NCBI GenBank assembly: GCA_001563335.1
Contig: LRSL01000009.1
Coordinates: 1 to 39,366, forward strand
DNA length: 39,366 nucleotides
Reading direction: 5' to 3'
Source of the DNA: Candidatus Thorarchaeota archaeon SMTZ1-45
GTDB taxonomy: Archaea > Asgardarchaeota > Thorarchaeia > Thorarchaeales > Thorarchaeaceae
Shown here: positions 4,107-12,559 of the stretch, one piece after another
How positions within the stretch are numbered: the first letter of the stretch is position 1
Layout of the letters: each line of letters starts with the position of its first letter
Position numbers and translations under genes: made by a program
Notes under the pieces: model-generated
The model's input: only the letters and a program-made list of their open reading frames with translations
Database searches by the model: none
What the model was told of the DNA's origin: nothing

Positions 4107-4160
4107 CACCACAACTTCTATAAACTGAAGACGAACAGATGGCATTTCGTGGGCCAGTGG
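4107..4160 (+). repeat. Degenerate duplicate of the tRNA-Lys promoter plus first 10 nt of the tRNA
   Basis: Ungapped 41/54 match to 4526-4579, including TCTATAAACT and CGTGGGCCAGTGG. Confidence 0.85.
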
Positions 4161-4228: not shown

Positions 4229-4423
4229 TCAACGTTTTCTTAACATGAGCACCACAGCCGCTATTATGAGCACGCAGCCACCAATAAAGAGGAGTAACTT
4301 GAACTGCTCCAACCAATAAGGGGTTGGGACTGAGCCTGGACTAGAACCTCCAAATATCAATAATATGATTCCGAAAAAAAGCAGACTACCCGCTAAATTA
4401 TAGTCCCGCTCCACTGCGGCCAC
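4229..4423 (-). CDS. Small two-TM membrane protein
   Basis: 64 aa, two hydrophobic helices, basic C-terminal tail; TTTATTAA box ~25-30 bp upstream. Confidence 0.65.
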   Translation of the reverse strand: MAAVERDYNLAGSLLFFGIILLIFGGSSPGSVPTPYWLEQFKLLLFIGGCVLIIAAVVLMLRKR

Positions 4424-4535
4424 CTATGCAGAGTAAACAGCTTAGTCTTAATAAACCCAGATATCAAGTATGAAACTTACCTTGCATACTGTCAGTAGCC
4501 AGTTGTACAACACAACCCTCGTTAACACCGCAATC

Positions 4536-4545
4536 TCTATAAACT
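4536..4545 (+). promoter_or_regulatory. TATA box of the tRNA-Lys gene
   Basis: TCTATAAACT ~25-35 bp upstream of tRNA position 1; conserved in the duplicate at 4117-4126. Confidence 0.7.
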
Positions 4546-4569
4546 TACAACAGGCAAAGGGCGTTCCGT

Positions 4570-4707
4570 GGGCCAGTGGCTAAGCCAGGTATAGCGACAG
4601 GCTCTTACTTCTCTCAGGTTATTCTGGGAGGAAGAGAGACTTGTTGGTCGAGGGTTCTGGCTTGTTGATTTCCAACAAGTCGCCCAAAAATCCCTCCTGG
4701 CCCGCCA
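4570..4707 (+). tRNA. tRNA-Lys(CUU) with two introns (4608-4638 at 37/38; 4658-4687 at 56/57), CCA encoded
   Basis: Acceptor GGGCCAG/CTGGCCC+G+CCA; D stem GCTA/TAGC; anticodon stem ACAGG/CTTGT with spliced loop CT-CTT-AA; T stem GAGGG/CCCTC with spliced loop TTCAAAT; both inserts fold into BHB-type motifs. Confidence 0.93.
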
Positions 4708-4710
4708 CAT

Positions 4711-7095
4711 TTACTTCTTCCGAATTACTACAAACAAGACAATTGCAATCCCACCTACAACTCCAATTGTGAATATGATGATAACTATCAGAGTGTCCAG
4801 AGGAGGAGGTCCTGTGGTTGTATCTGAAGCTGTAGATGTAGTGTCGGTTATAGTTGTCGGAAAAGTGGTCGTCGTTGTAGTTGTAGTAGTTGTTACAGTT
4901 TCCTCCACCACTGTGATAATGACCGTGTCTACCAGATTATATCCCGAAGCATCGTTCACTACCAAGGTCAGATTGTAACTACCAACTGATAGACCATTGA
5001 TTGACTTTGATATATGGTCTAGAGAAGAGTTCAAAGAATTTTGAACAATAATTGCTCCTTCCCACAATAACATGTATGATTCGGGATTTGGTAACCTAAC
5101 ATCCCATGAGATCGTAGGGACAATCGAACCAACCACATATTGAACATCATCCTGCCATGTGAGAAAGCCTAACGGATAGTTATCCACACCCATTCCTCCA
5201 ACGGAATAGACACCTTCGCCAGAATAGTCTGACCAGATATTACCCGTGTCTACACCATCATCCCATTCATTCCATATCCCACTATCAACAGCATTACCAG
5301 CCTCATTAAAGCCAATCATGTTGTTATAGATCTCAGAAAAGAGAGTATAGGATCCAAGATTCATTCCATAGTCAGCATTTCCATAGATTCTGTTATCGAG
5401 AATTCTTACGCCTGATGTAAAGTCCAAATGAAGCCCGTCTGACGAACTCCCAAGAATCGTGTTGTTGACAATCTCCAGATAGTTGACAACATAGAGTTCG
5501 AGAGGATCAGTATTATCATAGATCATGTTGTTTCTGACCACTCCGTAGCTGGTGTTAACTATGTTGATAGGATATCCCAGATTTTCATGTATCTGATTGA
5601 AATCAAAAATGTAATTATCAGAGCTAAATACCCAAATACCAAGCCCATTTCTCAGGATTTCACTCTCAGTCACAGTTGTGTAGTCAGATGTGTCAATTTG
5701 GAGTCCTCCAACGGAAGAATCTTTGATGGTCACATTTGTTAGGGTGCAATTGAGTGAGTGTGAAACTTCTATTCCTAAATCGTAGTTATCCACCAATAGA
5801 ACATCCCTTATACTACAATTGAAGCACGAATGAATCGCCATGCCAACAGTCGCAGAGGCGAATGTTCCATTTACTATAGAAAGATGGTTGGAACCTACCA
5901 ACACAAGCTGTCCGTATTCATTCCCGTTGATGGTCAAATCGCCCTGGTTGAGATAGTATCCGAACGGTTTTCCATTGACCGTGTTTCCTGTTTCAGAAAT
6001 AGTCCAGTACTCGGTAGCAGCTCCATTGAATATTATACCACATTCGATGAGAGTATTGTTTCTCAGTGTGGTATTCTCTGACTCGAACAAACTGATACCA
6101 TACAGGTTCTCACTGATTTCCATATCACTGATTGTGCAATTTGAGCACGATAGAAGACTTGGTCCAACTGATACATTGAAGAACACTCCTGAGTCGAGAC
6201 TCACATTGAAGCAGTCGATTAAGAACAGCTGGCCAAATTGATTTCCATCAATCTCGGTATTGTTTGTCCCTAAGAAATATCCAAGGGGTTTACCATTTAC
6301 CATATTCTCGGAGAAGTTGTGCATCCAGTACTCTTTGGACCCTACGATTCCGAAACCCCCATTTTGGAGTATATTGTTGACAAATGTGCAATTTCCAGTC
6401 GACCTGATGTAGAGCCCGAAAAAGCCGCTATCAATTATCTCGTTATCAGCGACTGTGATATTCTCAGAATCTTGAAATCTGATCCCCATTTCTCCGCAAT
6501 TGCGAATATAGTTATTCTCGACAATGGAGTATTTCAGATAGGCTAGATGGAAGCCGTAGCCTTCACAATTAATGACTCTATTCTCACTCAAAGTGCAATT
6601 GTAGCTTGACGCAGCCTGAGCGATTCCATAATAGCCACAGTCAGATAATGTGTTATTTACAATAGTGCAATCAATAGTGCCAATTAAGGCGATTCCAATG
6701 TAGCCGTTAGATATACTACAATTCTCGATAGCACCGTTACTCACATGTGAAAGCCTGATACTATTTGTTTTCACTTCACCTGTTTGCGACAGAACACAGT
6801 TCCTAATGACGAAATGGACATTGGTGTTAAAGATGTATATACATGTACCAGCAGTGACTATTTCCAGTCCTTCGATAATATATGGGGACTGTTGAGTTCC
6901 ATCACCTGGCCATCCCTGTGCTGCGAAAGCGGCATTTCCTGATATTGATATAGGACCATGAGGTACGAGTGATGATGGACTGGTTGAGGTATTTGGAAGC
7001 TCAGTCAAATACACCAGCATAGAACTGACGCTCGCACTAACAATTAACATCCCCACCAAGAAACTCAACAACTGCAGAACATTGATTCTTCTCAC
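4711..7095 (-). CDS. Cell-surface right-handed parallel beta-helix (NosD/CASH-like) repeat protein
   Basis: Signal peptide, GDGTQQSPYIIEG start motif, Asn-rich PbH1-like repeats with an internal duplication (VNGKPLGY/VNGKPFGY), Thr-rich linker, C-terminal TM + RKK. Confidence 0.9.
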   Translation of the reverse strand: MRRINVLQLLSFLVGMLIVSASVSSMLVYLTELPNTSTSPSSLVPHGPISISGNAAFAAQGWPGDGTQQSPYIIEGLEIVTAGTCIYIFNTNVHFVIRNCVLSQTGEVKTNSIRLSHVSNGAIENCSISNGYIGIALIGTIDCTIVNNTLSDCGYYGIAQAASSYNCTLSENRVINCEGYGFHLAYLKYSIVENNYIRNCGEMGIRFQDSENITVADNEIIDSGFFGLYIRSTGNCTFVNNILQNGGFGIVGSKEYWMHNFSENMVNGKPLGYFLGTNNTEIDGNQFGQLFLIDCFNVSLDSGVFFNVSVGPSLLSCSNCTISDMEISENLYGISLFESENTTLRNNTLIECGIIFNGAATEYWTISETGNTVNGKPFGYYLNQGDLTINGNEYGQLVLVGSNHLSIVNGTFASATVGMAIHSCFNCSIRDVLLVDNYDLGIEVSHSLNCTLTNVTIKDSSVGGLQIDTSDYTTVTESEILRNGLGIWVFSSDNYIFDFNQIHENLGYPINIVNTSYGVVRNNMIYDNTDPLELYVVNYLEIVNNTILGSSSDGLHLDFTSGVRILDNRIYGNADYGMNLGSYTLFSEIYNNMIGFNEAGNAVDSGIWNEWDDGVDTGNIWSDYSGEGVYSVGGMGVDNYPLGFLTWQDDVQYVVGSIVPTISWDVRLPNPESYMLLWEGAIIVQNSLNSSLDHISKSINGLSVGSYNLTLVVNDASGYNLVDTVIITVVEETVTTTTTTTTTTFPTTITDTTSTASDTTTGPPPLDTLIVIIIFTIGVVGGIAIVLFVVIRKK

Positions 7096-7263
7096 GAATC
7101 TCCCCAGTACACATTTACCTGTCTGCTATATAAACCAAAGCAATTTATCTATTCATTTATGGACGCTGTAATAGGTTAGAAAATACTGTCTAACTTGCCA
7201 TCACCACTCTATCTATTCTACTTGACCTTACTCAAAGGTATCAGGTATGCCTTTCAGCCAATT

Positions 7264-7283
7264 AAATTCCTCCTAGCCCGCCA
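7264..7283 (+). repeat. tRNA-Lys 3'-end copy 1 (att-like)
   Basis: AAATTCCTCCTAGCCCGCCA vs 4688-4707 AAATCCCTCCTGGCCCGCCA, 18/20. Confidence 0.9.
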
Positions 7284-7353
7284 TTTCATAAAAATTTGCT
7301 TTAATCCAATTCTCTATTATATCATAACTAAGTAGACCATCTGGTTAATCAAA

Positions 7354-8223
7354 ATGGAAGGGATACTCAGAACAGATGCAGGAGAAATCCGTTACTTCTG
7401 GAAGATTTCACTAGCCCTCATCCTGATTATTATGCTAATTGTCATAAGTAGGATTGTCCTGATATTTGCCGTCCAGCAGGTCTTCATTCTTCAAGGTATG
7501 ACCTCCGATATTGCCTTTGAGAACGCACAGGTCTTTGTGTCCGAATCATCAGAGGGTCAGGTGATAGCGAGTTCGCTGGACCTAGTTTTGACACTTCTGC
7601 TTGTACTCTTCCTAGTCACTCGCATCGAGAAACGTGAGTTCCACCTGACCGACCTCGGCTTGGATCTTCAACGTAATATCCTGCCTTTTGTGGGACTAGG
7701 ACTGTTCATGGGATGTGTCCTCTTTCTTGGAGCCGCCATGTTTGGAGTGCTTCTTGGCACACTTGAATTCCCGATATCACCAAATCTCAGCCAGTGGCCA
7801 TTCTTGAGCATGCTAGTTGCTTCAATAGCATTCTACGTCTTGAACAGTTTCTGGCAGGAAGTTCTATTTCGTGGATACTTGCAGACTCGAGCAGTCGGGG
7901 AATTTGGCCGTTTTACTGGAGTGACAGCAGTCACAGTGGTCTTTGTGGTCTTTCATAGCCTAGTTCAAACACTTACACCCATTGGGATTCTAGCAGGTTT
8001 TCTGTTGTTCTCGTTCATAGGTCTATTATATGAAAAGACCAATTCACTCTACCTCGTGGGTGTGATTCATGCAGTTCTAAATTTCCTGCCAGCTCTATTC
8101 AACACATGGTGGCAAGGGCTAGAAGCTGCCATGACATACGGTATTGCACTCATACTATTGATTCTGATGATACACCAAACTGAGCAGAGAGCACAAGTAG
8201 ACTCCAATCACACGCACTTGTAG
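7354..8223 (+). CDS. CPBP (Abi/CAAX protease) family intramembrane metalloprotease
   Basis: Multi-TM; QEVLFRGY, FVVFH and HAVLN motifs (first Glu of EExxxR is Gln). Confidence 0.85.
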   Translation: MEGILRTDAGEIRYFWKISLALILIIMLIVISRIVLIFAVQQVFILQGMTSDIAFENAQVFVSESSEGQVIASSLDLVLTLLLVLFLVTRIEKREFHLTDLGLDLQRNILPFVGLGLFMGCVLFLGAAMFGVLLGTLEFPISPNLSQWPFLSMLVASIAFYVLNSFWQEVLFRGYLQTRAVGEFGRFTGVTAVTVVFVVFHSLVQTLTPIGILAGFLLFSFIGLLYEKTNSLYLVGVIHAVLNFLPALFNTWWQGLEAAMTYGIALILLILMIHQTEQRAQVDSNHTHL

Positions 8224-8233
8224 GATTTTTTTA

Positions 8234-8253
8234 AAATCTCTCCTGGCTCGCCA
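8234..8253 (+). repeat. tRNA-Lys 3'-end copy 2 (att-like)
   Basis: AAATCTCTCCTGGCTCGCCA, 18/20 to 4688-4707. Confidence 0.9.
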
Positions 8254-8283
8254 CACCATTTTGTATGTAGTATCATTAGCAAT

Positions 8284-8958
8284 TTACTGAATAAACATGT
8301 TACCTGCTATCATGACTAGAAACGGGAGATTCACAAGATACATAATAAAATCATAGAGCGCTTCAAAAGCTGGCTCCTTACAAACTAGCTTGGCATATTC
8401 TGTAACTTCGTCCCTACTAGAAAAAAGAGAGGTCAATTCAAGTCGATGGCTTATAGCATCTATTCTATCTTGTTCTCTCTCAAATCTATGCCATCGTCTC
8501 CATACTGACATTGGTAATACCATCACGGAGAAAAAGAAGGTGGTCAAGGCTATGGTATACAAGACACCGAATGGGGAGAGTAGAAATACAAAGTATAGCG
8601 CAGCAACAAGAACAATCAGTGGATAGAGGAACGGAATGAAAAAATCAAGAATGAAAACCTCACGATATGACTCTAACTCATTCTCTTTTTCAATGTCATG
8701 CTCAGTTCTTGCAATGTATAATTTCATACCTGAGAGGAGATCTGTGTCCCTTAACTTAATCTTTAGAAATCCATCATCATCAATACTTGAAGAACACATA
8801 CGTTGCCGAGAAGAATCAGTTTCTTCGAATTCAATCTCAACTCTCTGAAGAACAACATCACTATATCCCTCAGCATAAAGCTCATGGCTTCTCTCAAGTA
8901 TCAACTCTTCGGCTTGTCTTTTCTTCTCTTCATTTTGATGGAAACTCATGTTGTTCAA
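8284..8958 (-). CDS. Hypothetical membrane protein
   Basis: 224 aa, soluble N-terminal part, two central TM helices and a hydrophobic C-terminus. Confidence 0.7.
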   Translation of the reverse strand: MNNMSFHQNEEKKRQAEELILERSHELYAEGYSDVVLQRVEIEFEETDSSRQRMCSSSIDDDGFLKIKLRDTDLLSGMKLYIARTEHDIEKENELESYREVFILDFFIPFLYPLIVLVAALYFVFLLSPFGVLYTIALTTFFFSVMVLPMSVWRRWHRFEREQDRIDAISHRLELTSLFSSRDEVTEYAKLVCKEPAFEALYDFIMYLVNLPFLVMIAGNMFIQ

Positions 8959-9026
8959 TCCATTACTGCAGACTCATCATTCTATCATACAGTGTGAATC
9001 GAGATAATTATTATTGAGAAATCTGT

Positions 9027-9053
9027 GAGAGTTCAAATACCCCTAGCCCGTCA
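9027..9053 (+). repeat. tRNA-Lys 3'-end copy 3, intron-less T-arm form
   Basis: GAGAGTTCAAATACC-CCTAGCCCGTCA vs spliced GAGGGTTC|AAATCCCTCCTGGCCCGCCA, 23/28 with one gap. Confidence 0.85.
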
Positions 9054-9144
9054 TCTACATCTAACTGTTCGCTGAATCGTAGTAAGCAGTATCACTCATA
9101 GAATAGTTCAGTAGAATTGCTTACTATACCGCGATAAAGAAACA

Positions 9145-9165
9145 GGGGCATCCCAAAGACACCCC
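9145..9165 (-). terminator. Hairpin followed by T-rich tract downstream of the 75-aa gene
   Basis: Minus strand GGGGTGTC-TTTGG-GATGCCCC then TGTTTCTTT. Confidence 0.5.
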
Positions 9166-9191
9166 CACTCAAGTTGCTGTTGTATTATAAT

Positions 9192-9419
9192 CTAGTCTGC
9201 ATGACGCATTGTGGTATAAGCATCGATGATGCGCCACAGACCATGCACAACTACGAACGCTAGAGCACTCCACGTTATCATATTTGCATATGTGCTGGAA
9301 CTGATTAGTGTACCACCAATTTCATAGATATATGGTATAAAAGCAAAAATCAAGACAATTTCTAGAATTCCCATGATCAGCTGACCCACAAAGCGTGGTT
9401 TTGCTACGCCTTTCTTCAT
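9192..9419 (-). CDS. Small two-TM membrane protein
   Basis: 75 aa with two hydrophobic helices; GGGAG SD-like upstream. Confidence 0.7.
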   Translation of the reverse strand: MKKGVAKPRFVGQLIMGILEIVLIFAFIPYIYEIGGTLISSSTYANMITWSALAFVVVHGLWRIIDAYTTMRHAD

Positions 9420-9523
9420 TATATTAGAAACTCTCCCAAAGTTTGTGCAATCATTCTACAACGGATATTTAACTCATACTTCTGTTTTCTAGGTCCTTTA
9501 ATAAGTCAATGAGATTATTCTAA

Positions 9524-9545
9524 TTCAAATTCCTCTGGTCCGCCA
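9524..9545 (+). repeat. tRNA-Lys 3'-end copy 4, intron-less T-loop form
   Basis: TTCAAATTCCTC-TGGTCCGCCA vs spliced TTC|AAATCCCTCCTGGCCCGCCA, 20/23 with one gap. Confidence 0.85.
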
Positions 9546-9659
9546 TGCTATCTTACATAAAGAATTGTCAGCTAGTATTGATGAACAGCCGCCATCTTCA
9601 TTGAGGCCGCCAAGCTCTAGGTTCATGCTCCCACAATGTCAGACGGTCGTTCTGGCATT

Positions 9660-10448
9660 TCACAGGACTTTAGGCAGGGTGTCAGAAACCCACTTCTCAT
9701 GAGCGAGATCAATGTCCTGAGATGAAAGCACGTAGTCTAGGTATCTCATATGGTCCTCAACACATCTTGCAATCGCATCATCAGACAGATTATGTATTCC
9801 CCAGTGTTGAGCCATTCTTTCTAATACCTCAAGAGGACTCCGCCAGTAGTTATGAAGATGAATGATCTTTACCTTGAACCCTATGGCCTCCATGCCTCTC
9901 TTGAAGGACTCTATTACTCCGCCATAGAGGACAACGGTCCAAGGATTTCTTTCAGCATGAAAGCTAATATTCTCAATGATGCGACGAAATCCCTTGGCGG
10001 TGAGTTCAAGTTGTTCTTCAAACAGGTCCCTCCATGCACTAATCTTAATCCTTCTCCGAGCACGCTCGCTTGTTTCCAAAAGTAAGGACTTCTCTAGAAG
10101 GCTATGAGCATCCATATGAATTTCCAAATCGTGATAACAGTAGACCTCAAGTCTTGGAATACTTTTCTTGAGTTGGTGCAGAGCGTCTAGAAGGGGGTCG
10201 ACGGTATATCTCAGTGCATTGACATAGGGGTCCTGCAGACCAGTCAGATAGATGTAGCTTTGCCATAACTCCTCTCTGGACACTTCTCCCACCATATAGT
10301 GATTGACGAAATTCGTCATGTCCTCTGGCAGCGCCAAGAAGAGTATCTTGTAGTTTCCCTTTGCCAGCCATTCAATCGCTCTTTCAGTCGTCTTCCTGAG
10401 CTTGGTGAGGACCAAAGTCAAGAGTGTTGGCAACACTGCTGCCTCCAT
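9660..10448 (-). CDS. Hypothetical protein
   Basis: 262-aa ORF 12 bp downstream of the PCM gene, same strand; no motif recognised. Confidence 0.7.
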   Translation of the reverse strand: MEAAVLPTLLTLVLTKLRKTTERAIEWLAKGNYKILFLALPEDMTNFVNHYMVGEVSREELWQSYIYLTGLQDPYVNALRYTVDPLLDALHQLKKSIPRLEVYCYHDLEIHMDAHSLLEKSLLLETSERARRRIKISAWRDLFEEQLELTAKGFRRIIENISFHAERNPWTVVLYGGVIESFKRGMEAIGFKVKIIHLHNYWRSPLEVLERMAQHWGIHNLSDDAIARCVEDHMRYLDYVLSSQDIDLAHEKWVSDTLPKVL

Positions 10449-10460
10449 GTTCTTTGCTAT

Positions 10461-11168
10461 TCAGTCGGACCAACCATGTTTCCCTTTGAGAGGAACGTAT
10501 AGGACTTTTTCTATGAACTTCCTCCTCAAAGTCCCATCCTTGTCCTGTTCTATCAGAATCAAGTCCTGAGCTCTTTCTGGAGATCCGACAGGCGCCATCA
10601 GCCTACCTTGAATCGCGAGCTGGTGAATCAATGGGCGAGGTATCTCAGGGCATGTGGCGGTGATGCAGATCTTGTCGTATGGAGCATCTGGTGCATAACC
10701 CAAAGAACCATCACCATGGATGAGAAAGACATCATCATAGTCTAACCTTTTCATGTTCCGCCTAGCAAAGTTGTATGTTTCCTCATCAATCTCGATTGTG
10801 ACGACTCTTCCATCTGGACCTACAATCTCCCTAGCCAAGGCTGCCCCATATCCAGAACCAGTACCCACTTCGAAGAGCTTCTCACCTGCTTTGAGTCCCA
10901 GAGCCTCATAGAACAACGGATAGCTATGAGGACATGAGATTGTGGCATCACGCCCTGGAAGCGGGAATGGGAGTTCGTGATATGCATAATCTCTGTACTG
11001 CTCAGGAACAAACTCCTCCCTTGGAACCTTGAGCATCGCCTTGATAATCCCTTTAGATTTTAAGAAGCCCTCCTGTGTCAGCCACTTGACCTTCTCTTCT
11101 CTTTCTTTTTCAAATTCTTTCTTTGTCTTTTCCGGTACCTTAGGATGAGGAATAGTCCAACCAACCAT
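10461..11168 (-). CDS. pcm: Protein-L-isoaspartate O-methyltransferase, paralog 1
   Basis: VPREEFV, ATISCPH, EVGTGSGY, GDGSLGY, APYDKI, YVPL motifs. Confidence 0.9.
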   Translation of the reverse strand: MVGWTIPHPKVPEKTKKEFEKEREEKVKWLTQEGFLKSKGIIKAMLKVPREEFVPEQYRDYAYHELPFPLPGRDATISCPHSYPLFYEALGLKAGEKLFEVGTGSGYGAALAREIVGPDGRVVTIEIDEETYNFARRNMKRLDYDDVFLIHGDGSLGYAPDAPYDKICITATCPEIPRPLIHQLAIQGRLMAPVGSPERAQDLILIEQDKDGTLRRKFIEKVLYVPLKGKHGWSD

Positions 11169-11368
11169 CTCAATGTGGAATTCACTGGGATCGAAATAAA
11201 CGAATCGGAATTGGCTTCTAGTTTTAGTCTATCGAATGTGGAGAATTGCTATATTAGTATCTCCAATGTTATTCTATATTCCATCCAGAATCTGAAACGA
11301 TTTCTAGAATTAAATCTCCTGATGAACCATTGTAAAGCAATGATTATGTAAATGGGCTAGGCACGAAA

Positions 11369-12358
11369 CTAATTAGACATTGTTTTAAGCCGTGAAATTA
11401 TCTCTTCAGCCTCAACCATTATTCTATCCAACAATTCCTTAACAGTAGGAATATCTTTGATCAAGCCTACGCCTTGACCACAAGCCACTACTCCAAGGTC
11501 AATATCTCCTTCCCTGTACATCTTTTCAGCTTTATCTCCAGATGCAGCTTGAATGAGCTTGAAGAGAGGAGCTCCTTCAGCCTCTAGTTCAAGCACGTGT
11601 TGCGCTGCTTTGTTGTTCCACAGTCTGTGAGTGTTTCCAACAGAACGCAAAGCTAAAACTGTATCAATTTCTGCTGCTTTAACGAAAGCCTGTTTGAGAT
11701 TGTCATGAATGGGACATTCCTTTGTAGCCATCAGCCTTGTGCCCATAATTACTCCTTCAGCGCCGAGTGCCAATGCCGCAGCAACACCCCTCCCATCAGT
11801 TATTCCCCCACCTGCAATTACAGGAACATCTAGAGCATCAACCACGGATGGAGTCATCACCATCGTTCCGATATCTAAGACTCCAGTAGCTCCACCATTC
11901 TCATATCCCACAACCGTTACTATGTCAGCACCTAGGGATGCTCCTTTTTTCGCATATCTTACCCCAGCACATTTGTGAATCCAGATAGCGCCACCATCCT
12001 TGAATTTAGGAACCAGATCCTCTGGAGCTTTGTGACCACTTGTTTCGATGATTTTCACTTCCTCAGCTAATGTGGCATCAACATAATCTTCTAGCTTTTC
12101 CTGAGGCATTAATGCGGGGAACAAATTGATATTCACGGCAAATGGTTGATCTGTAAGAGATTGTGTCTTTTTGATTGCATCGCGTAGATCATCAGGAGAC
12201 TTGTAATTTGCACTGGCTAGTACAGCACAGGCACCAGCATTACTAGCTGCTGCGACAAACTCTGGATTGGAAATCCTTGCCATGGTACCTGCTATAATCG
12301 GATATTTACATCCCAACATCTCAGTTACTTTTGTCTTTATCATTTGATTCACCCACAC
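11369..12358 (-). CDS. Nitronate monooxygenase / FabK-like flavoprotein (likely start ATG 12343)
   Basis: KYPIIAG, PFAVN, VPVIAGGGITDGRG, GVIMGTR, CGQGVGLI motifs. Confidence 0.88.
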   Translation of the reverse strand: MWVNQMIKTKVTEMLGCKYPIIAGTMARISNPEFVAAASNAGACAVLASANYKSPDDLRDAIKKTQSLTDQPFAVNINLFPALMPQEKLEDYVDATLAEEVKIIETSGHKAPEDLVPKFKDGGAIWIHKCAGVRYAKKGASLGADIVTVVGYENGGATGVLDIGTMVMTPSVVDALDVPVIAGGGITDGRGVAAALALGAEGVIMGTRLMATKECPIHDNLKQAFVKAAEIDTVLALRSVGNTHRLWNNKAAQHVLELEAEGAPLFKLIQAASGDKAEKMYREGDIDLGVVACGQGVGLIKDIPTVKELLDRIMVEAEEIISRLKTMSN

Positions 12359-12559
12359 ATCACTTGAACACCGACTAAATTCTCACAGATAAATATCGTT
12401 ATCAAATAGAACAATCGCTGCAAAGCTCTACTGATATGGAATTGTTCAAATTGCTCCTAGCCTTCAATTTTTCCTTTTTTTCGTAATCTCTATCCACTTG
12501 AATTGCTTTCCTCCCTCACGTAGTAATTCCTCAACAGACATATCTGAAAAGTAGTTGAT

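Follow-up and report, generated by a model that had tools for sequence, protein, structure and literature searches.

In a stretch of 39,366 nucleotides (nt) of contig LRSL01000009.1 from Candidatus Thorarchaeota archaeon SMTZ1-45 (assembly GCA_001563335.1), which we call the window, a tRNA-Lys(CUU) gene is followed by a row of small units that end in copies of the 3′ end of that tRNA. The explanation we favour, with moderate confidence, is that this is an accretion array of discrete one-gene cassettes that carry no integrase, enter in a polar manner at the 3′ end of the tRNA gene and are recombined by an enzyme acting in trans. The repeats, the tRNA gene, the cassette boundaries, the changes of rank and neighbours and the lack of detectable recombinase genes are observed directly. 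A reading of the sequence alone (the original prediction) had proposed that the repeats decay with distance from the tRNA because the newest units enter next to it and push older ones outward.

The array and its repeats

The tRNA-Lys gene that anchors the array lies at 4570–4707 on the forward strand. It has two introns, one at the canonical position 37/38 (4608–4638) and one in the T-loop (4658–4687), followed by a 3′ exon of 20 nt (4688–4707, forward strand). Downstream, on the same strand, are two ungapped 18/20 matches to this exon, R1 (7264–7283) and R2 (8234–8253), which form the distal ends of cassettes 1 and 2. Two further forward-strand copies match the spliced tRNA with one deletion each, R3 (9027–9053) at 23/28 with an intronless T-loop and part of the T-stem, and R4 (9524–9545) at 20/23 with an intronless T-loop. 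All four values are those of the original prediction. The T-loop of R3 and R4 is uninterrupted whereas that of the resident gene is split by its intron, which leaves no more than 20 nt of the resident gene available for matching to a cassette site. R2 has a GGCTCGCCA variant that it has in common with the repeat following the CPBP gene in G014, one of the genomes compared. A fifth copy, R5 (12445–12467, forward strand), is the most distal and the most decayed, with about 17/23 matches and 6 edits.

With a 23-nt intronless probe and at most 5 edits, exactly five sites are found in the window (the tRNA and R1–R4), all on the forward strand and none on the reverse, while 0.07 per window would be expected by chance (at most 1 in any of 100 Markov simulations). 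The 3′ exon as a probe with at most 3 mismatches finds three sites in the window, the tRNA itself included, with 0 expected in 100 shuffles. R5 is not significant by sequence alone, as 0.97 sites with 6 edits are expected; it is orthologous to repeats in G024 and G007 that stand in the same place after the nitronate monooxygenase (NMO) gene. Another site with 6 edits, at 11084, lies within the PCMT open reading frame (ORF) and was taken as chance. The start-to-start spacings of 2576, 970, 800 and 492 nt reproduce the unit sizes of about 2.6, 1.0, 0.8 and 0.5 kb given earlier. The proposed fall of unit size with distance does not hold, since R5 makes the last unit about 2.9 kb and no other array shows the trend.

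Cassette 1 (4708–7283) carries a NosD/right-handed beta-helix surface protein of 794 amino acids (aa) on the reverse strand (4711–7095; Pfam NosD 4.9e-46, Beta_helix 2.7e-45), whose relatives are present in the arrays of G003, G005 and G021. Its ORF stops 3 nt past the tRNA CCA at 4707. Cassette 2 (7284–8253) carries a 289-aa CPBP/Rce1-like intramembrane protease (7354–8223, forward; Pfam Rce1-like 9.8e-12) with its own conserved upstream region, and the ORF ends 10 nt before R2; both distances had been reported in the original prediction and were reproduced. The cargo of cassette 3 (8254–9053) is a 224-aa membrane protein of no known family (8284–8958, reverse), with no Pfam match and no usable match in a protein atlas search, of which a 73% identical copy stands at rank 2 of the G005 array. 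Cassette 4 (9054–9545) holds a 75-aa ORF (9192–9419, reverse) that is found in no other compared locus.

Past R4, the distal unit or units (9660–12358, reverse) contain, by Pfam, a 262-aa ORF of no family, a PCMT methyltransferase (10461–11168, reverse) and NMO (11369–12358, reverse). Among other species NMO is the conserved distal gene of Lys arrays, and it is present in every array reaching that far. It stands right after the tRNA in G007, between two repeats in G024, just past the last detected repeat in G003, and after the CPBP cassette, with no repeat detected between, in G005. Directly past R4, at 9580–9615, two short GCCGCCA-type stretches resemble the last bases of the repeat and may be remnants of further empty junctions.

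Cassettes as discrete units

Lys arrays are found in at least 10 genomes of the same genus, and the beta-helix, CPBP, 224-aa and NMO genes of the window recur in same-genus arrays behind the same tRNA. Six orthologous CPBP cassettes can be aligned over a span that opens with the base following the upstream CCA and closes with the downstream CCA. The span takes in the conserved region upstream of the gene, and the flanks outside are unrelated. The same boundaries and unrelated outside flanks are seen in six cassettes of family F7, a 248-aa methyltransferase absent from the window. These end in a 32-nt tail copy reaching into the T-arm and hold ranks 1, 1, 2, 2, 3 and 6 in the six genomes. Because the boundaries are shared from CCA to CCA and the flanks are unrelated, these alignments define a cassette as a gene together with its own distal copy of the tRNA tail. 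The cassette genes are also incongruent in identity with the flanking core gene SHMT; for example, between G003 and G023 the core gene is 93% identical, F7 76% and CPBP 64%. Given the same boundaries, the different ranks and neighbours, and this incongruence, units of well under 1 kb have therefore changed context as units.

Metagenome contigs extend the association. Where F7 is at least 77% identical, 19 of 21 assessable loci have a copy of the Lys tail no more than 70 nt from the stop, and 18 of 22 have one no more than 130 nt from the start. More distant F7 homologues have none (0/11 at the stop, 0/11 at the start), and the wrong-strand control gave 3/1500. On two metagenome contigs (L083 and L084), F7 homologues of about 60% identity adjoin sequences like the 3′ end of a different tRNA, a hint that the family travels with other tRNA tails in other lineages.

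Order of acquisition

We measured polarity by a statistic S, the number of concordant minus discordant pairs within arrays, with divergence taken as the number of edits that separate a copy from the 3′ exon of its own resident tRNA. Over 11 arrays divergence increases with rank (S = 23, permutation p = 0.008; p = 0.015 without this array), and so it does over 15 arrays, which add four metagenome arrays and R5 (S = 36, p = 0.0005; p = 0.002 without this array), and these pooled p values overstate the trend because the Lys arrays of relatives share units by descent. The original prediction further expected tRNA-proximal units to be the most variable between strains. The counts point in this direction: the rank-1 unit is shared with another genome's array in five of 11 Lys arrays, compared with 23 of 28 at rank 2 or beyond (Fisher p = 0.044), by counts made by hand from array maps in a small sample of related genomes.

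Several results weigh against a strict order. The three fully independent arrays of this genome, at tRNA-Ala, tRNA-Leu and tRNA-Gln, give S = 3 and p = 0.36; the anticipated relation of identity to rank at other tRNA arrays is seen in the pooled set of 14 and not in these three alone. Some copies are out of line, with a perfect copy at rank 5 of the Ala array, a single edit at rank 4 in G005, and 0 edits in all three copies of G017. F7 precedes CPBP in three genomes and follows it in a fourth, and the 224-aa gene is on opposite sides of CPBP in this genome (G000) and in G005. Furthermore, F7 is immediately behind the tRNA in only four of 21 metagenome contigs and is internal in the other 17, which fits later insertions pushing it outward and insertion at internal copies equally well. 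The differences in order could be explained by independent acquisitions from a shared pool, or by entry at internal copies.

If cassettes entered or were shuffled at any copy, the array would be real but unordered, and the trend in the window (2, 2, 4 and 3 edits) would be due to chance. We regard this as rather unlikely, although it has several points in its favour. The four copies of the window cannot show polarity by themselves, as the original prediction granted when it called its trend only suggestive, and the p value of the independent arrays, the perfect and nearly perfect distal copies in the Ala and G005 arrays and the varying cassette order between species are all as an unordered array would have them. 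Such an array would not account for the trend pooled over the 14 other arrays, for the lower sharing of proximal units, or for R5, which is the most distal and most decayed copy and is conserved in place across species; and the differences in order can stem from independent acquisitions out of a common pool. As judged from these comparisons of sequences, ordered acquisition appears partly supported: the proposal that the newest units lie next to the tRNA agrees with the pooled divergence and the sharing counts, and it does not agree with the independent arrays, the exceptional copies and the changes of order.

Search for a recombinase and for free cassettes

Six-frame searches of this genome returned 0 matches to tyrosine recombinases (PF00589), serine recombinases (PF00239) and Cas1 (PF01867), with control genomes positive. 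Nor was any recombinase or Cas1 found among the ORFs in and around arrays, with 20 from the window, 42 array ORFs and 99 from 20 array-bearing metagenome contigs (99 of the 117 listed ORFs, 18 F7 copies being left out); two ORFs of the array sets have a TnpB-like domain. PF00589 tyrosine recombinases do occur in eight of the 28 genomes of the genus, on other, mostly short contigs, and these integrase contigs show no tRNA gene and no convincing tRNA tail (12 short and 10 longer loci). The other 20 genomes, including one that is 97% complete, have no PF00589 domain, and would therefore lack a model-detectable Xer-type recombinase too.

In ‘suicidal’ capture of the SSV type, split integrase halves flank the unit and the att site lies inside the int gene. 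This candidate was rejected, with no PF00589 match in six frames and with beta-helix, CPBP and methyltransferase genes as the ORFs that abut the repeats.

A more general alternative is that the units are classical tandem islands that have been worn down, left by integrase-bearing viruses, plasmids or tycheposon-like elements after deletions had removed all but one cargo gene and a tRNA fragment. This route to such fragments is a published one (Islander, PMC4383910; a review of archaea, PMC8371274; Prochlorococcus, 10.1101/2020.12.28.424599). The tyrosine recombinases of the genus are in keeping with it, and so are proximal units with several genes including defence genes, such as the 4.2-kb proximal unit of G014 with AbiTii and HEPN genes. 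We nevertheless consider it unlikely. The F7 and CPBP cassettes keep both boundaries in many genomes although they change in rank and in the neighbours on either side, which means that it was the small unit that moved. Besides, no integrase remnant was found in six frames of this genome or among the 161 ORFs in and around arrays, and the integrases of the genus are on contigs that have no tRNA or tRNA tail nearby.

The explanation that we favour, with a recombinase in trans, has its own difficulties here. No enzyme, circular form or empty site was seen. Viral contigs gave 0 exact matches to the 23-nt intronless tail, and a viral collection gave 0 confirmed relatives of the F7 protein. The absence of an integrase is itself evidence of low weight: this genome is 88% complete and the binning of metagenome-assembled genomes tends to lose mobile elements, so the searches show only that the cassettes do not carry the enzyme. 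In Logan contigs of four runs there is no joint that skips a cassette, and in two of the runs, which come from other studies, this array recurs at about 99% identity. These data lend no support to rapid turnover and, the contigs being short, are no evidence against slow turnover.

The sole joint in the run contigs replaces 11174–11393 with 104 other letters (X2 and X3); the replaced segment is intergenic, between PCMT and NMO, where a cassette boundary might be expected. One X3 contig runs past 4707 into an F7-type cassette and may belong to another species, because the tRNA is conserved between species. A loose contig end is present at 8225 in X1 and X4.

Arrays at other tRNA genes

Arrays of this kind are not confined to tRNA-Lys. 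We examined 42 tRNA genes of this genome for copies of their own 3′ ends, and found six for tRNA-Ala(GGC), three for tRNA-Leu(GAG), two for tRNA-Gln(TTG) and one for tRNA-Cys (loci L031, G000:C15:51490–59451; L032, C34; L033, C101; L034, C18). The copies are spaced 0.5–2.4 kb apart, usually with one ORF per unit, and there were 0 reverse-strand matches. Clusters of Ala tails recur over the 28 genomes of the genus, with 0 matches in a backwards control. The Ala array likewise contains a beta-helix gene followed by a CPBP gene. Transfer between the Lys and Ala arrays is not evidenced, as no relationship can be detected between the CPBP genes, and the beta-helix genes, which belong to a large family, share only 33% identity. 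At G000:C15:53628–54967, ARAGORN calls a ‘tRNA-Tyr with a 1245-nt intron’ that ends on an Ala-tail copy and is probably an artefact of the array.

Over the arrays, the cargo includes beta-helix and CPBP proteins, GNAT acetyltransferases, methyltransferases, a beta-lactamase-fold protein, a thioesterase, AbiV/AbiTii/HEPN and SIR2 defence genes, and many small membrane proteins.

Most repeats at Lys, Ala, Leu and Gln have the same left edge, which is the start of the T-loop. An edge common to four tRNAs resembles an identity block such as site-specific systems have, and it is because of this edge that we favour an enzyme acting in trans. The cassettes could instead move with no dedicated enzyme at all, if homologous recombination between tRNA-derived repeats looped out circles and a single crossover put them back, in the cell of origin or in a different one, at the tRNA or at any copy that is still intact enough. 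This would need no integrase, which fits the 20 of 28 genomes that have no PF00589 domain, and it would explain arrays at five tRNAs, as well as upstream units bordered by 5′ fragments of about 60 nt, with no need for separate specific enzymes. Polarity would follow too if better-preserved copies were preferred. Homology of 20–32 nt is, however, very short, and the fixed edge at four tRNAs looks like the mark of a site-specific system and not like a historical accident. We judge it quite improbable that the cassettes move in this way.

The tRNA-Lys gene and its 5′ side

When 4608–4638 and 4658–4687 are excised from the tRNA-Lys gene by coordinates, what remains is a canonical tRNA-Lys(CTT) of 77 nt whose CCA is encoded. 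In the unspliced RNA the acceptor, anticodon and T stems form, with an intron hairpin in each loop (fold z = -4.78), and among the tRNA-Lys genes of relatives the exons are conserved and the intron flanks variable. A canonical cloverleaf after intron removal and conserved exons are what mark an intron-containing archaeal tRNA gene, and the gene has both, its splicing being predicted. ARAGORN missed it in the window, also with intron options, and Rfam at the gathering score reports no family in the window, tRNA-Lys included. We judge the gene to be real despite this silence, because its spliced 77-nt form is canonical and its precursor folds.

Species differ in their T-loop intron. Here it follows TTC; in G003, G017 and G006 it precedes TTC; it is absent in G021 and G008; and it has a different sequence in G022. 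Moreover, the second copy in G017 and the first copy in G005 are displaced copies whose intron flank is unlike that of the resident tRNA. These differences and mismatched flanks fit an exchange of introns via integration.

The 5′ side of tRNA-Lys seems to gather units too (4107–4160 in the window; L014, which is G001:C3; L016; and L015). In the window, 4107–4160 (forward strand) is a duplicate of the tRNA promoter and the first 10–12 nt or so of the tRNA, a displaced 5′ fragment with 76% identity to 4526–4579. It borders a small unit with a 64-aa membrane-like ORF of family F1 (4229–4423, reverse), which lies between the fragment and the tRNA; F1 adjoins tRNA-Lys in seven loci and has only a weak MFS_2 match in Pfam. 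Similar 5′ fragments, ending at about tRNA position 10–12, are present in G003, in G020 and in G001, which has three of them and no full Lys tail nearby. At L015 (G020:C435, 1–7627), the 5′ part of a tRNA-Lys ends after the variable loop, and a 3′ tail that matches it is found 7.5 kb away, where the contig ends. Between the two lies another tRNA-Lys, complete and oppositely oriented. The arrangement could have come from an inversion between copies of the tRNA, or the gene could be disrupted.

Comparison with known systems

Polar accretion at tRNA genes has been described before. In the model of Hackl et al. for Prochlorococcus islands (10.1101/2020.12.28.424599), partial tRNA copies separate successive insertions, cargo is left behind, incoming elements push residents inward and heterogeneity peaks beside the tRNA. 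Ordered acquisition alone is therefore not new. The tycheposons of that study are described there as elements of several kb with tRNA-specific tyrosine recombinases and replication modules. The islands resemble the present arrays in having partial tRNA copies between units and the highest variability next to the tRNA (5/11 versus 23/28 shared, as counted above). In contrast, the units here are 0.3–2.9 kb and mostly of one gene, there is no recombinase in the arrays or the genome and no replication module among the array ORFs, the host is an archaeon, and the target tRNA has introns.

Islander (PMC4383910) demands an integrase for each island and rejects candidates below 2 kb. As in the arrays it describes, there is here an intact tRNA with 3′ fragments in the same orientation downstream, and the sublocation runs from the T-loop to the acceptor. 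The units here have no integrase of their own, and only the first of the 2576, 970, 800 and 492 nt units reaches 2 kb, so they would be filtered out. Tandem cases at archaeal tRNA genes are reported in PMC8371274 and PMC6563490; the smallest element in a survey of Thaumarchaeota is 2.6 kb and has an integrase.

Integrons, and clusters of attC sites lacking integron integrases (CALINs), are reported as enriched in Asgard archaea (Ghaly et al. 2022, PMC9668308), in passages that do not mention tRNA. Such cassettes mostly hold a single ORF with one site at the end, their integrase is often not nearby and mobilization in trans is possible, all of which is like the arrays described here. The cargo to be set beside theirs consists of GNAT acetyltransferases, methyltransferases and small unknown proteins. 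The differences are that the site here copies the 3′ end of a tRNA and is probably no attC hairpin, that the anchor is a tRNA gene and not attI beside intI, that genes lie in both orientations with their own upstream regions, and that PF00589 is absent. The attC sites of integrons are imperfect palindromes with RYYYAAC...GTTRRRY cores; read by eye, the four junctions of the window show no GTTRRRY, and the repeats are explained as tRNA tails. The likening of the array to integrons or CRISPR arrays in the original prediction is a fair analogy for order only; no integron feature was found.

Units without recombination genes are also familiar from accretion at att sites in streptococcal integrative and conjugative elements (ICEs), where cis-mobilizable elements (CIMEs) have att sites on both sides and, it is proposed, rely for their movement on an integrase supplied in trans. 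CIMEs derive from, and adjoin, a known cognate ICE. The units here are similarly flanked by att-like tails and devoid of recombination genes. They differ in that no cognate integrase-bearing element was found, the integrase contigs of the genus having no tRNA tails and the viral scans being empty.

A single 1.8-kb element encoding a recombinase has been linked to the gain of a tRNA intron (Sugahara et al. 2012, PMC3293823, summarised in PMC8371274). That case is like this one in its extra tRNA intron, its displaced 5′ fragment upstream and its variation between close relatives, and unlike it in that here there are many units, none with a recombinase. Our search of the literature, which left most subscription journals and supplements outside, found no description of archaeal integrase-free single-gene cassettes bounded by tRNA tails.

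Proposed mechanism and implications

A cassette consists of a gene, usually with its own promoter region, and a distal tail copy of about 23–32 nt that runs from the T-loop, or sometimes the T-arm, to the CCA. In the mechanism that we favour, a cassette in a circular or otherwise free form would use this tRNA mimic to recombine with the resident tRNA's 3′ end or, more rarely, with a displaced copy; the anatomy observed is the one that such recombination would produce. Insertion would place the cassette right behind the CCA and leave the tRNA whole, and the leftover copy, no longer selected, would decay. New cassettes would enter mostly beside the tRNA, because an intact tRNA is the best target, and older ones would be pushed outward; polar entry would therefore leave distal copies more decayed on average and distal units more widely shared. 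The recombinase would lie outside the arrays and act in trans, either on an unbinned mobile element or as a member of an unrecognised family. Within this explanation three points are inferred, namely that cassettes pass through a circle, that an enzyme acts on them and which way insertion proceeds.

A wider reading, possible but tentative, is that Thorarchaeota run an integron-like exchange of cassettes keyed to tRNA tails, with a recombinase of an unrecognised family or with none. Many tRNA genes would then serve as docking sites for single genes with a 23–32-nt mimic from T-loop to CCA, and T-loop introns would shorten or reshape the target and would themselves be swapped by these events.

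If cassettes move without an integrase of their own, they would be a main route of small-scale gene gain in Asgard archaea, bringing in surface proteins, proteases, acetyltransferases, methyltransferases and defence genes. Units of this kind are lost to standard island finders, which require an integrase and a length of 2 kb or more. The arrays would also hold a built-in relative clock, made of rank and repeat decay, for dating acquisitions. Finally, the displaced tails and the species-variable T-loop intron would provide a data set on an old question, namely whether mobile elements give rise to the tRNA introns of archaea or whether such introns keep them out.

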